Source: Escherichia coli (GTDB lineage: Bacteria > Pseudomonadota > Gammaproteobacteria > Enterobacterales > Enterobacteriaceae). Taken from it: a stretch of DNA of 64,000 nucleotides. The stretch is taken from the NCBI RefSeq assembly GCF_044324785.1, contig NZ_CP172127.1. One strand, given 5' to 3'. The notes under the pieces were generated by a model that saw nothing but the letters and a program-made list of their open reading frames with translations, was not told the origin of the DNA and did no database searches. Every line of letters starts with the position of its first letter. Position 1 is the stretch's first letter. The position numbers and the translations under genes were made by a program. Positions 5,999 through 42,648 of the stretch are shown here, piece after piece.

Positions 5999-6220
5999 AT
6001 GTTTGGCGATAAACTGGAGTTACCACGGAACGGGCGGATAGTGCTCTATATTTCAGATTACAAAGTAACCAGGGCTGAGGTGTTGGAACCGGAAAAACAT
6101 CTGGTCACGTTACCGGACATTATTGAGTTGTATAAGCGGGTCGGATATGTGGACTTGCATCGCGATGATGTTCCCGTTGAGTGTATGGAATGTGAACACC
6201 GGAGGTTTGAAGTTGATTGA
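5999..6220 (+). CDS. hypothetical protein (73 aa)
   Basis: ORF with GGAGG RBS. Confidence 0.4.
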   Translation: MFGDKLELPRNGRIVLYISDYKVTRAEVLEPEKHLVTLPDIIELYKRVGYVDLHRDDVPVECMECEHRRFEVD

Positions 6221-20420: not shown

Positions 20421-20757
20421 TTTATGTCCTTAAAAGTTAGTGATATGACAATGATTAGATGGCGACAATAGGTATAAATTTCAATAATAACAACTTGACT
20501 TAGCTCACAAAATTTAAAGGAAATCTTATGGCAAAACCGGACTGGGGAGCACTGCAACACCAGTTCCTCGCCGTCCATGCCAAAACGGGTATATCACCGA
20601 AAGAATGGTGTGACGCGTAGGGACTGAGCTTCGCAACAGCCGCCGACGTATAAAAAACAATTGCGCAATGTGCCAAAGAGCTGGTGCCTGATGTAAGAGA
20701 CGTTTTACTTAAACGAGAGGCCGCCTTTTTGTTTTAAGACGGCACACCTTCAACAGG

Positions 20758-21003
20758 TTAAGGTAACCGATTTGACCATTTAGTTGCGCGCCAGTTGTTC
20801 TGAATCATAATCTCCTCGAGTATCTCATCTGAAGGCTCTGCTTCGCCGCTTAACCATTCTCTTAAAGTTGGACAATGCAGGTAAGAGGAGTTCGCACGAT
20901 AAAAAGATACGATGGTTTCCTCTGATAACTTCTCAGGAAATTTTTTGGGGTCAGCTTCTTTTAATATTACGCTCATTAAGGCTTCGATTTTTTCTTTGTT
21001 CAT
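20758..21003 (-). CDS. hypothetical protein (81 aa)
   Basis: ORF only. Confidence 0.35.
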   Translation of the reverse strand: MNKEKIEALMSVILKEADPKKFPEKLSEETIVSFYRANSSYLHCPTLREWLSGEAEPSDEILEEIMIQNNWRATKWSNRLP

Positions 21004-21374
21004 TTTTTTGTGTGCTCATGGTTGTTGCTTTTCTGTAAGAATATCAATAATTTCAAGATATATACACATAGGGAAAACTTTGTTCGGTAGTCTATCGATA
21101 CAGCGCAAAAGGATGGCTCGCTGCCAAAGTGAAAGCTTACGCTGATAATGAGATACACAAAGCTGATGTATGCAAACAAGTACGCCGCGAGGCTACAGTC
21201 GAGTTTGATGAACCTGATGCGAGCCCCCGATTCCTGTCCTGAAAGGGATATAGCCCCCCTGGTCGCGGGTCCTTTCCGAAATTCAAAACACCGAGGGTCG
21301 GTAGACGCGCAAAAACTCACTCGTTTTTAGTATTTTTTCATTTTGGGTATTTCCGGTTCCGGTGAGGATTTTTA

Positions 21375-21941
21375 ATGGCAAGTCAGGCTGAGGTCGCAGC
21401 ACATTTACTGCTATCTGATCGTCGTCTGCGCGATCTTGCAAAACTTCCGGGAGCCCCAGTCCCCCAAGGACGTGGCGATTGGGAACTTGACGCATGGCGC
21501 CATTTTTATATTCGTTATCTCCGGAGCAATAGACGCGACACAACTAGTAATGACGAACCGGAAGCTGGGGACAATTCTCCCGAAAAAAATCGCGAGCAGT
21601 GGTTGAAAAATGAGGAACGGCAGGAGCGAATCCTGATGGCTCGCGTGAAACGCCGCATTCTTGCTAAACGCTACGCGCCAATTGAATTAATCAGCGTATC
21701 TGTATCTCGCGTCGCAGTTGAATTACGTACCCGTGTCGAATCGTGGCCACCACGGTTAAAAAAGGTGTGGCCGGAAATGCCGCAGGAGGCGAGCAGTGTA
21801 TTACGAGAGGAGCTGGCAATAGCCCTGAATGAACTGGCAGACATACGAATCGACTTCAGCGATTACGATGTCAGCGATATCGAACGCGATCTCGACAGGG
21901 TTGAATCCCTTGCGCGTGACGATACCGATGACGGGGGTTGA
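21375..21941 (+). CDS. terminase small subunit
   Basis: position immediately upstream of and overlapping gpA-like large terminase; acidic C-terminus. Confidence 0.55.
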   Translation: MASQAEVAAHLLLSDRRLRDLAKLPGAPVPQGRGDWELDAWRHFYIRYLRSNRRDTTSNDEPEAGDNSPEKNREQWLKNEERQERILMARVKRRILAKRYAPIELISVSVSRVAVELRTRVESWPPRLKKVWPEMPQEASSVLREELAIALNELADIRIDFSDYDVSDIERDLDRVESLARDDTDDGG

Positions 21942-23790
21942 GTGGGCTGATAAACATTTTTATCTTCCCGAAGGCTCAAGCCATATTGCTGGCCACTGGA
22001 CGACTCAGCCGGTCCAGGTAGTGATGTTAAATATGATGACTAACGACGCGATAAAAATCGTGTCTGTTCGCAAATCAGCTCGTCTCGGTTATACAAAAAT
22101 ACTCGTCGCGGCGCTGCTCTATTTCGCTGAGCACAAAAAACGTAGTGCCGTGGTCTATCAGCCTATCGATGACGAATCGGATGGATTTGTCGCCGACGAG
22201 GTTGACCCCGCTATCGCCGAAATGCCGGTGATTCAGAAAATTTTCCCAGACTGGGATAAAAGCAACGAGCGTAACAATCTCCAGCGCAAAGAGATGAGCG
22301 GCGCAATTATTGATTTTCGCGGCGCGAGTACGCCGGGGAATTTTCGTCGACTGACGAAACAGGTTGTCGAAGGTGACGAGGTCGACGGCTGGCCGCTGGA
22401 GGTCGCTAAAAAAGGTAAAGGCGAAGGCTCGCCAATTGAGCTGGCGCTCGTTCGAATTAAGGGCGCAGCATACCCGAAAGCGATTTTTGGTTCGACGCCG
22501 ACCGTTACTGGCAAAAGCCATATAGAAATGTTGGAAGACGCGGCTGATCTGACGTTTCGTTTTTACCTGAAGTGTCCGCATTGTGGCGAGGAGCAGGTCC
22601 TGGTATTTGGTTTCGACGGTATCGAATACGGTCTCAAGTGGGATGACAGCCTGCAGACCAACGAGTCGAAATCGTCGTCCGCGTATTACCAGTGCTGCCA
22701 CTGCCCGGAGCATTTTTACTATCGCGATCTCGAAAAAATGGAGCTCGGGGGGCGCTGGATAGCCGAGGACTGCACCTGGACCCGAGACGGAATCCATTTT
22801 TTTGATCATGACAGTGGCGTCGTTCGCGCGCCGAAACACGCGGCGATCGTGATAAACGCCCTGTATTCACTAAACCTTGATGGATGGGGCGAGATTGTCA
22901 GCGAGTGGCTGAAAGCGAAGGGCGACCCACTCAAAGAAAAAACGTTTCATAACACGACGCTCGGCGAGCTTTGGAGCGACGTGGCCAGCGAGCAGCTGGA
23001 GCACGATATTCTGGTTAATCGCCGGGAAAAATACGCCAGCCAGGTTCCTGACGGTGTTGTTTATATAACCGGCGGCATCGACTCTCAGACGTCCGGGCGC
23101 TACGAGTGTTACGTGTGGGGCTGGGGAGCTGAGGAAGAGTGCTGGCTGATTGATAAAACAATCGTCCTCGGTCGCTACGACGAAGAGGACACGCTGCAGC
23201 GTGTCGACGGAGTGATTCGCAAACAATACCGGCGCAGCGACGGGACCACAATCGGCGTCAGCCGCTGGGCGTGGGATACCGGCGGTATAGATGCGCAGGT
23301 TGTTTATAACCGCTCGCTGAAACTCGGTCCGCTGTGGGTCATTCCAATTAAAGGCGCAAGCTCATACGGCCAGCCAGTCGTAAATATGCCGCGTACACGT
23401 AACGCGAATAAAGTTTATTTGTCGTTAATCGGTACTGACACAGCAAAAGATTTGCTCGCGATGCGCCTGCCACTGGAACCAGACCCAAAATCAGCGACAC
23501 CGGGTGCAATTCATTTTCCAAACGACGACGAAAAATTCGGCACAACAGAGGCAAAACAGCTCGTCTCTGAAGTTCTGATCCCGAAACTCATTAACGGTCG
23601 CGTCGTTTACCGCTGGGACAACCAGGGGCGGCGAAATGAGGCGCTCGACTGCTGGGTATACGGGCTGGCAGCGCTGCGTATCAGTAAAATTCGTTTCCAG
23701 CTCAATCTCGAGACGCTCGCTGAGCAACGGAAAAAATCACAAAACAAACTGTCTCTCGAGGAGATGGCGAGAATGCTCGGAGGGAGCTAA
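21829..23790 (+). CDS. terminase large subunit (lambda gpA family)
   Basis: VEWADKHFYLPEGS, VRKSARLGYTKIL, CPHCGEEQ, ITGGIDSQ, WGWGAEEECWLID, VIPIKGAS, RRNEALDC all parallel lambda A; start may be internal Met near 21928. Confidence 0.9.
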   Translation: MNWQTYESTSAITMSAISNAISTGLNPLRVTIPMTGVEWADKHFYLPEGSSHIAGHWTTQPVQVVMLNMMTNDAIKIVSVRKSARLGYTKILVAALLYFAEHKKRSAVVYQPIDDESDGFVADEVDPAIAEMPVIQKIFPDWDKSNERNNLQRKEMSGAIIDFRGASTPGNFRRLTKQVVEGDEVDGWPLEVAKKGKGEGSPIELALVRIKGAAYPKAIFGSTPTVTGKSHIEMLEDAADLTFRFYLKCPHCGEEQVLVFGFDGIEYGLKWDDSLQTNESKSSSAYYQCCHCPEHFYYRDLEKMELGGRWIAEDCTWTRDGIHFFDHDSGVVRAPKHAAIVINALYSLNLDGWGEIVSEWLKAKGDPLKEKTFHNTTLGELWSDVASEQLEHDILVNRREKYASQVPDGVVYITGGIDSQTSGRYECYVWGWGAEEECWLIDKTIVLGRYDEEDTLQRVDGVIRKQYRRSDGTTIGVSRWAWDTGGIDAQVVYNRSLKLGPLWVIPIKGASSYGQPVVNMPRTRNANKVYLSLIGTDTAKDLLAMRLPLEPDPKSATPGAIHFPNDDEKFGTTEAKQLVSEVLIPKLINGRVVYRWDNQGRRNEALDCWVYGLAALRISKIRFQLNLETLAEQRKKSQNKLSLEEMARMLGGS

Positions 23791-24023: not shown

Positions 24024-25594
24024 CTGCTCCACAGCAGCTGCTCGGGCCTGACGGTAAAACGCCACTACGCCGTTTTGCGGGGTATAACGGCGGCGGTCCC
24101 GGTTTCGGTGGCCAGCTGATTGACTGGAATGCGCCACAGCAAAGCGCCGATGCGGCACTGCTGCCTAATTTTTATCGCGGTAACGCGCGAGCAGACGATC
24201 TCGTTCGCAATAACGGTGTCGCGTCGAACGCCGTGCAGCTGCACCAGGATCATATTGTCGGCAATCTGTTTAAATTGAGTTATCGCCCTAACTGGCGTTA
24301 CCTAGGGATATCTCGCGAGGACGCCAGGGCGCTGGCGCGTGACGTTGAGGTCGCGTGGACTGAATACGCTGAGGACCCTCACTGCACGATTGATATCGAG
24401 CGGAAACGGACGTTCACAATGATGATCCGCGAGGGTGTGGCCACTCACGCGTTTAACGGTGAAACCTGCGTACAACCGGTCTGGGAAAGCAGTACCGGTA
24501 GCGTTTTTCGGACGCGATTCAAAATGGTTTCGCCGAAACGGATTCGAAATCCGGGTTACGCAGCTGACACCCGATTTCGCCGCGCCGGTGTTGATATCGA
24601 TAAAAATGGAGCCGCAGTGGGCTACTGGATAGCCGAGGACACCTATCCACTCGGTGGAATCGGCAAGTGCCGGCGTATACCAGCGCAGCTCAGCAGCGGC
24701 AGACACGCATTCATTCACATATTCGAGCCGCTCGAGGACGGACAGACCCGCGGAGATAACATTTTCTACAGCGTCATGGAGCGCCTGAAAATGCTCGACA
24801 CACTGCAGCAAACACAGCTGCAGAGCGCGATTGTTAAGGCCATGTACGCCGCGACAATCGAATCAGAGCTCGATAGTCAGCAAGCGTTTGAATATATCGC
24901 CGGCGCGGGTACTGATATCGACTCGAACCCACTGAATTCGTTTATTCAGAGTTACGTGACGTACTACAACGGCGCAAATATCAAGCTCGGTGGTGTGAAA
25001 GTTCCTCATCTGCATCCCGGCGACAAACTCAGTTTACAGACCGCTCAGAATGCTGATGCTGGTTTTAGTTCACTGGAAAAATCACTCCTGCGTTACGTTG
25101 CAGCTGGCGTTGGCGCGTCATACGAAGAACTTAGCCGGGACTACAGCCAGGTCAGTTACTCCAGCGCCCGGGCCAGTGCTAACGTCAGCTGGCGATTTTT
25201 CATGGGGCGTCGACGTTTTATCGCCGCGCGACAGGCTTCGCTGATGTTCTGCTGCTGGTTTGAGGAGGCGCTGGCGCGCGGGATTATCACTCTGCCCCGC
25301 TCCGCGGTTCGGTCGTTTTACGAGGCGCGGAACTCCTGGACGAATGCCCTCTGGATCGGCGCTGGACGTATGGCCATCGATGGGCTGAAGGAGGTTCAGG
25401 AGAGCGCCATGAGAATCACGACCGGCCTCAGCACGTATCAGAACGAACTGGCGCTGCAGGGACAGGATTACGAGGAGGTTATGGAGCAACAGGAATACGA
25501 AATTCAGCGCCGGCGTGAAATGGGGCTGAGCGAACCGTCATGGTCTGTATCTCACTCCTCAAATACCAACGATAACGGCTGGGGAGGTAACTGA
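24020..25594 (+). CDS. portal protein (lambda gpB family)
   Basis: 524 aa, gene order and similarity to lambda B. Confidence 0.85.
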   Translation: MTAPQQLLGPDGKTPLRRFAGYNGGGPGFGGQLIDWNAPQQSADAALLPNFYRGNARADDLVRNNGVASNAVQLHQDHIVGNLFKLSYRPNWRYLGISREDARALARDVEVAWTEYAEDPHCTIDIERKRTFTMMIREGVATHAFNGETCVQPVWESSTGSVFRTRFKMVSPKRIRNPGYAADTRFRRAGVDIDKNGAAVGYWIAEDTYPLGGIGKCRRIPAQLSSGRHAFIHIFEPLEDGQTRGDNIFYSVMERLKMLDTLQQTQLQSAIVKAMYAATIESELDSQQAFEYIAGAGTDIDSNPLNSFIQSYVTYYNGANIKLGGVKVPHLHPGDKLSLQTAQNADAGFSSLEKSLLRYVAAGVGASYEELSRDYSQVSYSSARASANVSWRFFMGRRRFIAARQASLMFCCWFEEALARGIITLPRSAVRSFYEARNSWTNALWIGAGRMAIDGLKEVQESAMRITTGLSTYQNELALQGQDYEEVMEQQEYEIQRRREMGLSEPSWSVSHSSNTNDNGWGGN

Positions 25595-26901
25595 TGCCGT
25601 GGAACAATTTTCCGCACCTCGCCGCCAGGGCGTTCAATCAACCGCTTTTGCTGGAGCCCGCCTACGCGCGGGTGTTTTTTTCAGCGCTGAGCGACCGGTT
25701 CGGTACCGGGCGACTGATTGATACAGCGTCCGGAGAGGTAATGAACAGCGACGAAATGAACGCGCTCGCGATGGGGTGGGACAGCAGCGAGCGAACACGC
25801 CAGAAATCGTATCGCGTGGAGCGTGGTATAGCCGTTCTGCCTGTTACCGGGACGCTGGTTCATAAATTGGGTTATATCAATCCGGTCAGCGGGATGAGCG
25901 GTTACGACGGAATCGCAAAACGTCTGCAGCAGGCGATTTCTGATCCCGATGTTAAGGGGGTCTTGCTGGATATTGACTCCCCTGGCGGTGAGGTCGCCGG
26001 CGCGTTTGATACCGCTGATCTAATCGCCCGGGCGCGAGAGCAAAAACCGGTGTGGGCGCTGGCCAGCGATACGGCCTGCAGCGCCGCCTATTTGCTGGCG
26101 TCAGCGTGCTCGCGCAGGCTGATAACGCAGACCGGCACGGTTGGTTCAATCGGTGTCCTGATGGCTCACCGCTGCGTCGAAAAAGCGCTGGAGATTGCTG
26201 GCGTTGACGTGACGCTGATTTACGCCGGTGCACGCAAGGTCGACGGAAATCCTTACTCACAGCTGCCCGACGACGTTCGCGACGAATTCCAGCTGAGTAT
26301 TAACAGCACGCGCGAGCAGTTCGCGCAAAAAGTCTCGGATTATACCGGGCTGAAAAAATCCAGGGTGCTGGCCACTGAGGCCGCAGTATTTATCGGCGCG
26401 GACGCGATTAAATCTGGTCTCGCTGATCAACTCGTTAATTACGCGGACGCTATTGCAGTGATGGCCGACGCACTGAAACCAAAAATGGAGCGATTTATGC
26501 CAGGTACAGAAACCACGGCGGAGACCACGACCACAGAACAAACCGCGGCCACGACTACGGTCGCGCAGATTGAGTTCAACGAGAAACAGATTCGCGCTGA
26601 CGCTGTGTCGAGCGAACTGGCGCGCGTGATGGCCATCATCAATTGTCCCGAGGCCGTCGGGCGCGAGGCGCAGGCAAAAGCGCTCGCCGGCGTCCCCGGG
26701 ATGACCGTCGAGCAGGCGCAGCTGGTCCTCGCGGCAGCACCGCAAACGGCGCAGGCGCGGACAGAAACGGCGCTCGATACACTAATGAGCACTGAATCAC
26801 CGGCGACTATTCAGGATGCCGGCAGCATTACGGCAACAGGAACAACCGCAAACGTCTCGATGCTTGTCGCGGCAGGGCGTTCAATTTTAGGGGATGAATG
26901 A
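25594..26901 (+). CDS. head maturation protease / scaffold (lambda gpC-like, S49 ClpP-like)
   Basis: S49 peptidase core plus Ala/Thr-rich scaffold-like C-terminus. Confidence 0.8.
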   Translation: MPWNNFPHLAARAFNQPLLLEPAYARVFFSALSDRFGTGRLIDTASGEVMNSDEMNALAMGWDSSERTRQKSYRVERGIAVLPVTGTLVHKLGYINPVSGMSGYDGIAKRLQQAISDPDVKGVLLDIDSPGGEVAGAFDTADLIARAREQKPVWALASDTACSAAYLLASACSRRLITQTGTVGSIGVLMAHRCVEKALEIAGVDVTLIYAGARKVDGNPYSQLPDDVRDEFQLSINSTREQFAQKVSDYTGLKKSRVLATEAAVFIGADAIKSGLADQLVNYADAIAVMADALKPKMERFMPGTETTAETTTTEQTAATTTVAQIEFNEKQIRADAVSSELARVMAIINCPEAVGREAQAKALAGVPGMTVEQAQLVLAAAPQTAQARTETALDTLMSTESPATIQDAGSITATGTTANVSMLVAAGRSILGDE

Positions 26902-40821: not shown

Positions 40822-42648
40822 ATGGCAATAATATCGGGTGTATACGCAAATGGGGTCGGCGAGCCCGTTGTCGGCGTTCAGTTAGTATTAACAGCACGGG
40901 TCACGAGTTCACGCGTAGTAATGACCACTGTTGTAGAGCAAGAAACAGGCGCGGCGGGTGAGTACAAATTTGATATGAAGCCCGGAGTTTACGTTGTCAC
41001 TGCTAGTGCGGCATATCTCGGCGTGATTAACGTTAACCCGGACAGTGTTGACGGCACGTTAAACGACTATTTGACTAATTTTAGCGCAGACGAACTGACG
41101 CCAGCTGCGTTGGCGGAGATCCAGGAACTCGTTGCCACAGCACAAGCCGCTGCCAGTGTTGCCAGCGCCGCCGCAACGGAGGCCAGGCAGAATGCCGCCG
41201 CCGCCGCTGCTGCTGCGCAGATTTCGACGGCAGCGGCAGGGAGCGCCAGATTTGAGAATTTTGACGAAATTATCAATGTCAATACAACAGCAATGCTGGA
41301 GCTGGAAAAACCGGAGGTGTTAGATCCGGATATTGCAATAACTATCACAGAGACGATTAATTATAACTATATTGGCCCGGTAAACGGATTTTGCGACGTT
41401 ACTAGCCCGCTTGAATATAAAATTCAAATGTACGCCTACACAACAGGCGAATATTTTAACGGCGAAACAAATTTAACAGCGGACGGGAAGTTTTCTTTTA
41501 AACGTTCCTGGGCTGGTGCAAAACAATTCAGATTGGTGCGCGTAGCAGATAGTAAATGGATCACTACGCTGGAATACCCGCTGTGTATTCGCAGTTACTG
41601 GATGCCCGCTGACGCCGATCCCGAGGTAGTCAGCGTCATGAAAGACCGTTGCTACACATATGATCAGGCGTGCGCGGCGCTGGCTCTCATGGCGCAGAAT
41701 CACGAGGCGGTAGAGCGTTATGTTACGGGTCTGTGCGCCCTGGTGGGTGAAAACGGCGGCATTAAATTTTTTGTTAACCGGCTGTCCGCACAGTCCTCCC
41801 GCGAATATTACCGCACGGGTAACGCGGCGTGGGTGTTGTACGCCCTGGCATTCTATCTGAGCAAATACCCTACCGGCAGTAACGCTGAGTTAGCGCGCGC
41901 GAAATTAAACGCCGGGCTAACCTGGCTGGACGGTCTGAAGGTTGACGCCAGCGGCGACCCGCGCCACGGCTTATACATGGGCGGCAACGGTAAATATCTG
42001 GAGGACGGATCATTTGATCCGAATTATGTTGCGACCTGGTGCGCGCTCGAGCACAACGTTGATATTTATTTTTTATTCGAACTCGTTGGACGGTTAACCG
42101 ATTTTACCGGATACGAACTGCGAGCCACCACGCTGGCTGCAAATATCGTGGAAAAATTCTGGATTGAGAGCGAGGGGCGATTCCGGCAGGGCGTGCACAT
42201 TGACGGCCCGGACAACGCCGCAGCGCTGGATCAATCGAGTTGGGGCGGGATATTCGCAGTAAAAGCCGCGCCGGAGTTGGCGGAAAAATGCCGCCGTTAT
42301 ATGGAAAGATTCCGGTTCGGCACACTGGAGAGCACCGGTTATACACCGTATCACCCGGACTACGGATACAGCGGCCATAGCCGTGGCGTGTGGACCGAGG
42401 GTACAGCGGGTGTAGCACTATTCGAACGTGCGCTAGGGAACGAGCAGAGAGCTACCGATCTGATCGCGGGATTAAAACCACTGCGTAATGAATACGGCTA
42501 TCGCGACTCATGCGACGATAAAAAATACGACACACTGCCGGACTGGCCGTCGACTACAAACACCGCTTGGGTTATTTTAACATGCAAGCCGGCGGGGTTT
42601 TGGTGCGTAGATTTCCCGGTATTGGACGTTGGTATCGTCAGGTACTGA
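40822..42648 (+). CDS. side-tail-fibre-like N-terminal domain fused to putative (alpha/alpha)6 glycoside-hydrolase-like domain
   Basis: N-terminal ~100 aa parallel lambda Stf N-terminus; Ala-rich linker; ~400-aa C-terminal domain with glycosidase-like character. Confidence 0.5.
   Translation: MAIISGVYANGVGEPVVGVQLVLTARVTSSRVVMTTVVEQETGAAGEYKFDMKPGVYVVTASAAYLGVINVNPDSVDGTLNDYLTNFSADELTPAALAEIQELVATAQAAASVASAAATEARQNAAAAAAAAQISTAAAGSARFENFDEIINVNTTAMLELEKPEVLDPDIAITITETINYNYIGPVNGFCDVTSPLEYKIQMYAYTTGEYFNGETNLTADGKFSFKRSWAGAKQFRLVRVADSKWITTLEYPLCIRSYWMPADADPEVVSVMKDRCYTYDQACAALALMAQNHEAVERYVTGLCALVGENGGIKFFVNRLSAQSSREYYRTGNAAWVLYALAFYLSKYPTGSNAELARAKLNAGLTWLDGLKVDASGDPRHGLYMGGNGKYLEDGSFDPNYVATWCALEHNVDIYFLFELVGRLTDFTGYELRATTLAANIVEKFWIESEGRFRQGVHIDGPDNAAALDQSSWGGIFAVKAAPELAEKCRRYMERFRFGTLESTGYTPYHPDYGYSGHSRGVWTEGTAGVALFERALGNEQRATDLIAGLKPLRNEYGYRDSCDDKKYDTLPDWPSTTNTAWVILTCKPAGFWCVDFPVLDVGIVRY

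Follow-up and report, generated by a model that had tools for sequence, protein, structure and literature searches.

A probable lambda-type cos site with a simple cosB ahead of the small terminase gene of an Escherichia coli prophage

A temperate prophage of E. coli, with an early region of lambdoid type, a head like that of lambda and a contractile tail like that of P2, very probably has its cos site at positions 21267-21362 of the window (the whole 64,000-nt stretch of Escherichia coli DNA analysed here). Judged by sequence comparison, the subsites follow the order cosQ - cosN - I2 - cosB, as in lambda, with terS and terL immediately after, and the whole appears to be a lambda-type cos with an N15-style simple cosB, common to a family of telomere phages of Aeromonas and Vibrio. 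By lambda-like cos we mean, after PMC4669245, 12-base 5' cohesive ends similar to those of lambda together with cosQ, cosN and cosB. An earlier note on this DNA had proposed a cos or packaging site upstream of the small terminase gene, and this proposal is now supported by a match to cosQ, by the spacing of the elements, by the ends of related phages and by the gpA-family large terminase. The note had regarded the likeness to lambda as an analogy and not a sequence match. This has to be amended, since a sequence match to lambda was found: the string 'cgcgggtcc' that was quoted contains the lambda cosQ heptamer. The description of 21230-21374 as a non-coding stretch, GC-rich and then T-rich, was accurate. 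Indeed, the quoted strings are present there, the first part (21230-21310) has 56.8% G+C and the second (21311-21374) 32.8% G+C and 46.9% T, for a window average of 47.9% G+C. Base composition by itself would not exceed chance in this stretch. Beyond chance lie, in contrast, the exact match of 13 nt to lambda, CGGGTCCTTTCCG, its fixed spacing to the cohesive end, and a conservation of the non-coding DNA that is higher than that of the adjacent coding DNA.

The stretch is contained in a 370-nt gap between a minus-strand gene and terS. The features of the region are the following:

20758-21003, minus strand: gene of family phrog_5191, function not assigned
21267-21273, plus strand: cosQ-like heptamer GGGTCCT, within the 13-mer (21266-21278) identical to lambda
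21291-21312: cosN nicking site, with predicted nicks between 21295 and 21296 on the top strand and between 21307 and 21308 on the bottom strand
21296-21307, plus strand: predicted 12-nt 5' cohesive end GGTCGGTAGACG, from homology to the mapped ends of relatives
21308-21347, plus strand: I2-like segment, CGCAAAAACTCACTCG followed by T tracts, resembling lambda CGCGGGTTTTCGCT and N15 CGCAGATTCTCGCT
21348-21362, plus strand: single R3-like site TATTTCCGGTTCCGG, the presumed TerS binding site (simple cosB), from its position and conservation
21375-21941, plus strand: terS, small terminase, 188 aa, remote Nu1 homologue (phrog_57, 'terminase small subunit', E = 1.7e-38)
21555-21564, minus strand: inverted copy of the R3 core, GAACCGGAAG, in the E-P-E codons of terS, a candidate accessory site like N15 rR2
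21928-23790, plus strand: terL, large terminase of the gpA family (Pfam GpA_ATPase, 2.6e-46; GpA_nuclease, 1.3e-63)

No conserved gene was found within 21230-21374. An open reading frame of 60 aa (21148-21330) crosses the stretch and was rejected as a gene: it is without a family match, it is not conserved upstream of cosQ in relatives, and the gap that holds it carries no annotated gene in either the 705R4 record or the RefSeq annotation of strain C41.

The small terminase is about 45-47% identical to the TerS proteins of the Aeromonas phages phiARM81ld, PhAER-1, PhAER-2 and PhAER-5, and more distantly related to those of the Vibrio phages Valp1, HY01 and ST2-1pr. Its homology to lambda Nu1 is visible only with PHROGs and hhalign; the latter places TerS residues 3-154 on Nu1 residues 4-165 (144 columns, including the N-terminal helix-turn-helix region; probability 90%, E = 1.7e-6), which makes the protein a Nu1-type TerS with an N-terminal winged helix-turn-helix. 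No match to Pfam, Phage_Nu1 included, or to NCBIfam was obtained even at E = 10, so that the homology to Nu1 must be called remote, and a sequence search among solved structures returned noise only. A gpA-family large terminase is encoded beside the site, TerL being about 44% identical to gpA of lambda and of phage 21. Cos sites, and not the headful mechanism, are used for packaging by the characterised members of this family (lambda, 21, N15), which have 5' cohesive ends. The start of terL at 21928 follows the 705R4 annotation (an ATG, with a 14-nt overlap with terS); the longest open reading frame, from 21829, overlaps terS by 113 nt. TerL is followed downstream by gpW, a lambda-family portal and an S49 protease. 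In strain C41, the corresponding prophage has an early region of lambdoid type (repressor, RepO, helicase, Q), genes for lysis, a head of the lambda type and a contractile tail of the P2 type.

The 13-mer containing GGGTCCT links the site to lambda. It occurs once in the window and in 0/100 shuffles, and it is invariant in 11 of 12 aligned relatives. An 11-mer, GGGTCCTTTCC, with one mismatch allowed, is not significant alone in 64 kb (0.71 occurrences expected, 1 found); it is the exact 13-mer, taken together with its position, that is significant. cosQ is a 7-bp, highly conserved element required for the termination of packaging (PMC4669245). The right end of lambda reads ACGGGTCCTTTCCGG..., with GGGTCCT 23 nt ahead of the nick; in the lambda record, which ends ...ACGGGTCCTTTCCGGTGATCCGACAGGTTACG and begins GGGCGGCGACCTCGCGGG, the heptamer occupies the nucleotides 24-30 before the right end. 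The distance from cosQ to the CGCR flank is 35 nt, i.e. a 23-nt spacer plus a 12-nt cohesive end, in lambda, PhiR12_2, phiARM81ld, ST2-1pr and the relatives L036, L037, L039, L041, L044 and L045. The window, 705R4 and the E. coli-type relatives L029 to L033 have 34 nt, and every relative with mapped ends has one nucleotide more. Either the spacer is 22 nt long or the overhang is other than 12 nt. cosQ stands upstream of cosN at a fixed distance, with a predicted spacer of 22 nt (23 if the nick falls between 21296 and 21297).

The physical ends of several relatives can be read from their sequence records. That of phiARM81ld begins GGGCGTTAGACCCGCATG..., its first 12 nt being GGGCGTTAGACC, 78 nt ahead of terS, and ends ...GGGTCCTTTTTTGCACCTTTTTCCCTTGCG, i.e. 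...CCCTTGCG. The separately deposited PhAER-1 and PhAER-5 have the same left end as phiARM81ld, and GGGCGTTAGACC is also found after ...CCCTTGCG at their other end. The presence of the 12-mer at both ends of a record is what filled-in 5' overhangs would give. In the Valp1 record (OR500391.1), GGGGCATGACCT still has Illumina adapter attached to it at either end of the sequence: one end reads adapter and then GGGGCATGACCTCGCAG..., and at the other ...GGGTCCT is followed by 23 nt and GGGGCATGACCT, then by adapter. This contamination of a 'complete genome' (L013, L014; adapters TTCCCTACACGACGCTCTTCCGATCT... and ...AGATCGGAAGAGCACACGTCTGAA) marks the true ends of the virion DNA, with a 12-nt cohesive end on both sides. 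The record ends of phiARM81ld, PhAER-1, PhAER-5 and Valp1 are thus physical ends: they have an overhang of 12 nt, placed 23 nt after GGGTCCT, and all four align with position 21296 of the window. The published accounts of phages HY01 and Valp1 do not discuss cos.

Family loci were searched for with a three-sequence TerS alignment as query, and 12 family members were aligned with MAFFT (alignment A4). The invariant columns comprise cosQ, GG at +1/+2, C at +11, CGC at +13 to +15, part of TCNCTC, the T run and TTTCCG.TT.C; the A residues at +10 and +16 are nearly invariant. Conservation between relatives starts exactly at cosQ, and upstream of 21267 the sequences of relatives L029, L030 and L033 are unrelated. 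Against L029, whose TerS is 87% identical, the DNA from cosQ to the ATG is 83% identical and the 200 nt upstream of cosQ 47%. Against phiARM81ld, identity is about 70% between cosQ and the start codon of terS; the 67 non-coding nucleotides to the right of cosN reach 78%, compared with 58% for the coding DNA of terS and 49% upstream of cosQ. Alignment to lambda-like cos sites, suggested in the earlier note as a check, bore out two further parts of it: the quoted gggtcggtagacgcgc aligns to the 12-nt ends of phiARM81ld, PhAER-1, PhAER-5 and Valp1 and to lambda bp 1-16, and the T-rich segment ending tttccggttccgg corresponds to I2 plus R3 of lambda.

These comparisons lead us to predict that the cohesive end of the prophage is 5'-GGTCGGTAGACG (21296-21307), give or take 1-2 nt. 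The predicted end aligns to GGGCGTTAGACC of phiARM81ld and the PhAER phages, to GGGGCATGACCT of Valp1 and to GGGCGGCGACCT of lambda, the last with matches at 7/12 positions and differences at the other 5/12. It also closely resembles the predicted end of ST2-1pr, GGTGTGTGAACG. In alignment A4, +1 of phiARM81ld falls opposite 21296, with a 1-nt gap in the spacer between cosQ and cosN. When +1 is set at 21296, the ungapped identity to bp 1-70 is 35/70 for lambda, 32/70 for N15 and 46/70 for phiARM81ld, and it clearly drops when +1 is moved by one base either way; the lambda value is the best in the window, yet other T-rich stretches score 33-34. The placement of the end rests on this alignment and on this register of ungapped identity, both of which favour +1 at 21296, and the position of the nick is uncertain by 1-2 nt because of the 34-nt distance from cosQ to CGCR here as against 35 nt elsewhere. 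A scan for two-fold symmetry gave too weak a signal to fix the centre of cosN: the symmetry at the predicted centre is 5/12, equal to that of lambda and no better than at several neighbouring centres. Contigs that carry the site do not end there (0/14 viral contigs in IMG/VR, 0/10 metagenome contigs), nor does 705R4, the only full-length phage record (27 kb), start at cos. As none of these E. coli-type records and contigs ends at the site, the cut positions are predicted and not observed.

The site could be a cos with other cuts than these, namely CG/AGGGTCGGTAGA/CG (21294-21305; slashes mark the cuts), or an overhang of 11 or 13 nt. In lambda-like phages, a highly conserved CG dinucleotide flanks each nick (PMC4669245), and the register 21294-21305 keeps CG on both sides, while the preferred one has CG on the right (21308-21309) and AG on the left. 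Some departure is in any case forced by the distance of 34 nt instead of 35 nt, and relative L044 has the same left flank, CCGA/GGGT. However, with a cut at 21294, cosQ and the nick would be separated by 20 nt, where ten other lineages have 23 nt, and cosN would move by 2 nt with respect to I2 and R3. Both the alignment and the register tests favour 21296, and in ST2-1pr the near-identical ...ACG/GGTGTGTGAACG/CGCAG goes together with the standard 23 + 12 spacing. We therefore regard these other cuts as possible, though rather unlikely.

Two more distant explanations would deny the site its present role in packaging. According to one of them, the conserved block is an element of transcriptional or translational control of terS (a late promoter, a 5' UTR element or a terminator). 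The block does stand directly ahead of terS, with a Shine-Dalgarno GAGG at 21364-21367 abutting the R3-like site. In the Aeromonas phages (right end of phiARM81ld, L003 945-985; L036, L037 and PCAh2), cosQ is overlapped by a strong hairpin, CCCATTCC...GGAATGGG (z = -2.97 in phiARM81ld), with a T run after it as in an intrinsic terminator; the window is without an equivalent structure. The window has instead the palindrome ACCGAGGGTCGGT at 21290-21302, which spans the predicted top-strand nick and was called as a weak terminator-like hairpin on the minus strand (21303-21289); the E. coli-type group shares it, with a broken version in L033, so that it is probably not required. Against control, no promoter-like site was found in 21267-21374, the sole plus-strand match lying at 21121-21149, and the promoter and terminator signals scanned for are no more numerous than in shuffles. 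The RNA folds of the window are no better than those of shuffles (z = +1.14 and -0.65), and the site has 0 Rfam matches. In addition, a control function would leave unexplained why the genomes of four relatives end at the start of the block and why the lambda cosQ match stands at a fixed spacing. We consider this explanation extremely improbable. According to the other, the site descends from a cos but has fallen out of use in a defective prophage. Some copies of the prophage are indeed decaying: in C41 (L051, NZ_CP127252.1), the closest genome copy (99.6% identical), terS is annotated with 306 nt only (20688-20993) and the S49 protease as a partial pseudogene (24850-25839). The deposited phages vB_EcoM-705R4 (L001, ON470624.1), 720R5, 569R10 and 783R5 (ON470604, ON470596, ON470627) are 20-27 kb records that look like partial prophage contigs; the deposited 'complete genome' of 705R4 opens with the start of an ImmA/IrrE-peptidase gene, and in each of the other three the match reaches the end of the record inside terL. 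In the window, however, terS, terL, gpW, portal and protease are full-length open reading frames with strong family matches, and 443 of 5426 complete E. coli genomes (about 8%), those of strains E24377A, SE11 and C41 among them, carry the site with 95-99% identity and always on the chromosome. Every cos subsite is intact, and within cosN the E. coli-type variants differ only in the centre of the cohesive end (TCGGTAGAC, TCGGGAGAC, TCCCAGGAC), where lambda-like phages tolerate change. A relic is therefore highly unlikely.

The DNA from cosN to terS amounts to just 67 nt of non-coding sequence with one R-like site. Its left part resembles I2, an element needed for efficient termination in lambda (PMC4669245), and its CGCA and TCNCTC columns vary little or not at all among 12 relatives. 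The R3-like site, in which TTTCCG.TT.C is invariant in 12/12 relatives, occupies +53 to +67, counted from the predicted end, compared with +53 to +64 for lambda R3 (CGTTTCCGTTCT) and bp 48-59 for R3 of N15 (PMC4669245). From this position and from the homology of TerS to Nu1, we infer that TerS would bind TATTTCCGGTTCCGG. No IHF consensus with two or fewer mismatches was detected in the cos of the window. A complex cosB, with three R sites (R3, an inverted R2 and R1) and an IHF site between R3 and R2, is thus not what is seen; the region has the simple N15-type arrangement of a single R site at the R3 position without an IHF site, together with an inverted copy inside terS, GAACCGGAAG, conserved in six relatives.

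Within this inverted copy, the sequence GAACCGGAA (21555-21563) forms a perfect 9-nt inverted repeat with 21351-21359, about 205 nt from the R3 core. It is found at the same Glu-Pro-Glu codons in phiARM81ld, L029, L030, L036, L039 and ST2-1pr, 196-215 nt from R3 in the first five of these, and the TerS protein sequence varies around it. In phiARM81ld and L039, the base flanking GAACCGGAA agrees with each phage's own R3. In N15, rR2 is an inverted copy of R3 located at bp 249-260, inside the TerS gene (PMC4669245), and by analogy GAACCGGAAG is a candidate for an accessory site of the rR2 type.

From the homologies to lambda and N15, the exact nicks, the binding of TerS and the roles of cosQ and of the inverted copy can be fitted into the following scheme. 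The Nu1-like TerS would bind the single R3-like site through its N-terminal winged helix-turn-helix, possibly assisted by the inverted copy inside terS, and would position the gpA-type TerL on cosN. TerL would then nick twice, 12 nt apart, to leave the predicted 5' cohesive end, and packaging would move to the right, through terS and terL to the head genes. The terminating cut would be directed by cosQ, cosN and I2 of the following cos on the concatemer.

The order and orientation of cosQ, cosN and cosB relative to the terminase genes are those of lambda. Besides the terminase relationships described above, the two sites have in common the cosQ heptamer within an identical block of 13 nt, a cohesive-end spacing that agrees within 1 nt, a G-rich cohesive end followed by CGC, an I2-like TC.CT element, and an R-type site, (A/G)TTTCCG.TTC, at +53, comparable to R3. 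They differ in the size of cosB, about 67 nt here and about 180 nt in lambda, and in the start of terS, at +80 here and at +191 in lambda. They differ as well in the R sites (one R-like site here; R3, R2 and R1 in lambda), and no IHF (I1) consensus was found here. With N15, the prophage site shares a compact layout (terS at bp 89 in N15 and at about +80 here), just one R site, located at about +50 to +65, with no IHF site (PMC4669245), and an R core repeated in inverted orientation within terS, about 200 nt downstream (249-260 in N15; +260 to +269 here). The R sequences themselves are unrelated (GAGGTTGTTGTT in N15, TTTCCGGTTCC here), and TerS is only 22% identical to N15 gp1, over a partial alignment. 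Neither the R3 sequence nor the recognition helix of TerS is of the N15 or the Monarch specificity, and from these sequences the N15 and prophage sites appear to have the same architecture and to belong to different specificity groups. The phages also differ in that the tail here is contractile and P2-like, and in that the prophage is integrated while N15 is a linear plasmid. The telomere phages phiARM81ld and PhAER-1/-2/-5 of Aeromonas, and Valp1 and ST2-1pr of Vibrio, form one cos family with the E. coli site, alignable from cosQ to the ATG of terS; they have the R3-like site and the inverted copy in the EPE codons, and their TerS and TerL are the closest outside E. coli. They are, in contrast, linear-plasmid prophages with a protelomerase, in other hosts, and their sites differ in the centre of the cohesive end and in having one more nucleotide between cosQ and cosN.

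General understanding of cos packaging is unchanged by these results, the site being an ordinary compact relative of those of lambda and N15. What is gained is a nearly base-level annotation of cos for a prophage that about 8% of complete E. coli genomes carry, which allows its genome to be linearised correctly and the neighbouring DNA open to co-packaging or hijacking to be predicted. The lambda arrangement of cosQ, cosN, I2 and R3, recognisable in sequence, extends to myovirus-tailed prophages and to the telomere phages of Aeromonas and Vibrio. In addition, there is now a second lineage with an N15-type simple cosB (one R site plus an inverted copy in terS), which bears on how the complexity of cosB evolved.

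It is tempting to go one step further and suppose that the gpA/Nu1-type phages of Escherichia, Aeromonas and Vibrio share a minimal cos, in which the R3-like element and the inverted EPE copy make up all of cosB, the EPE codons are kept as a DNA site, and the layout is old. In such a site, cosB would consist of a tandem half-site, TTTCCGG-TT(T)CCG, beside the ribosome-binding site of terS, plus the inverted copy in the invariant Glu-Pro-Glu codons. We put this forward tentatively and hold it to be somewhat doubtful. If it were true, the EPE motif would have been selected as TerS-binding DNA rather than as protein, and the N15-style combination of R3 and rR2 would be an old and widespread solution, and not a recent simplification of a lambda-type cosB, as has been proposed for N15.

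Other R3-like sequences occur in the window. A second inverted, partial copy, CCGGAAATGCC, at 21771-21781 (matching 21346-21356), lies in the W-P-E-M-P codons of terS; it looks unlikely to be conserved, because the phiARM81ld protein reads WPDVP there, and is likely coincidental. The 9-mer of the R3 core, TTCCGGTTC, is found 4 times in the window, compared with 0.51 expected, two further exact copies being located at 6086-6094 (minus strand) and 42310-42318 (plus strand).
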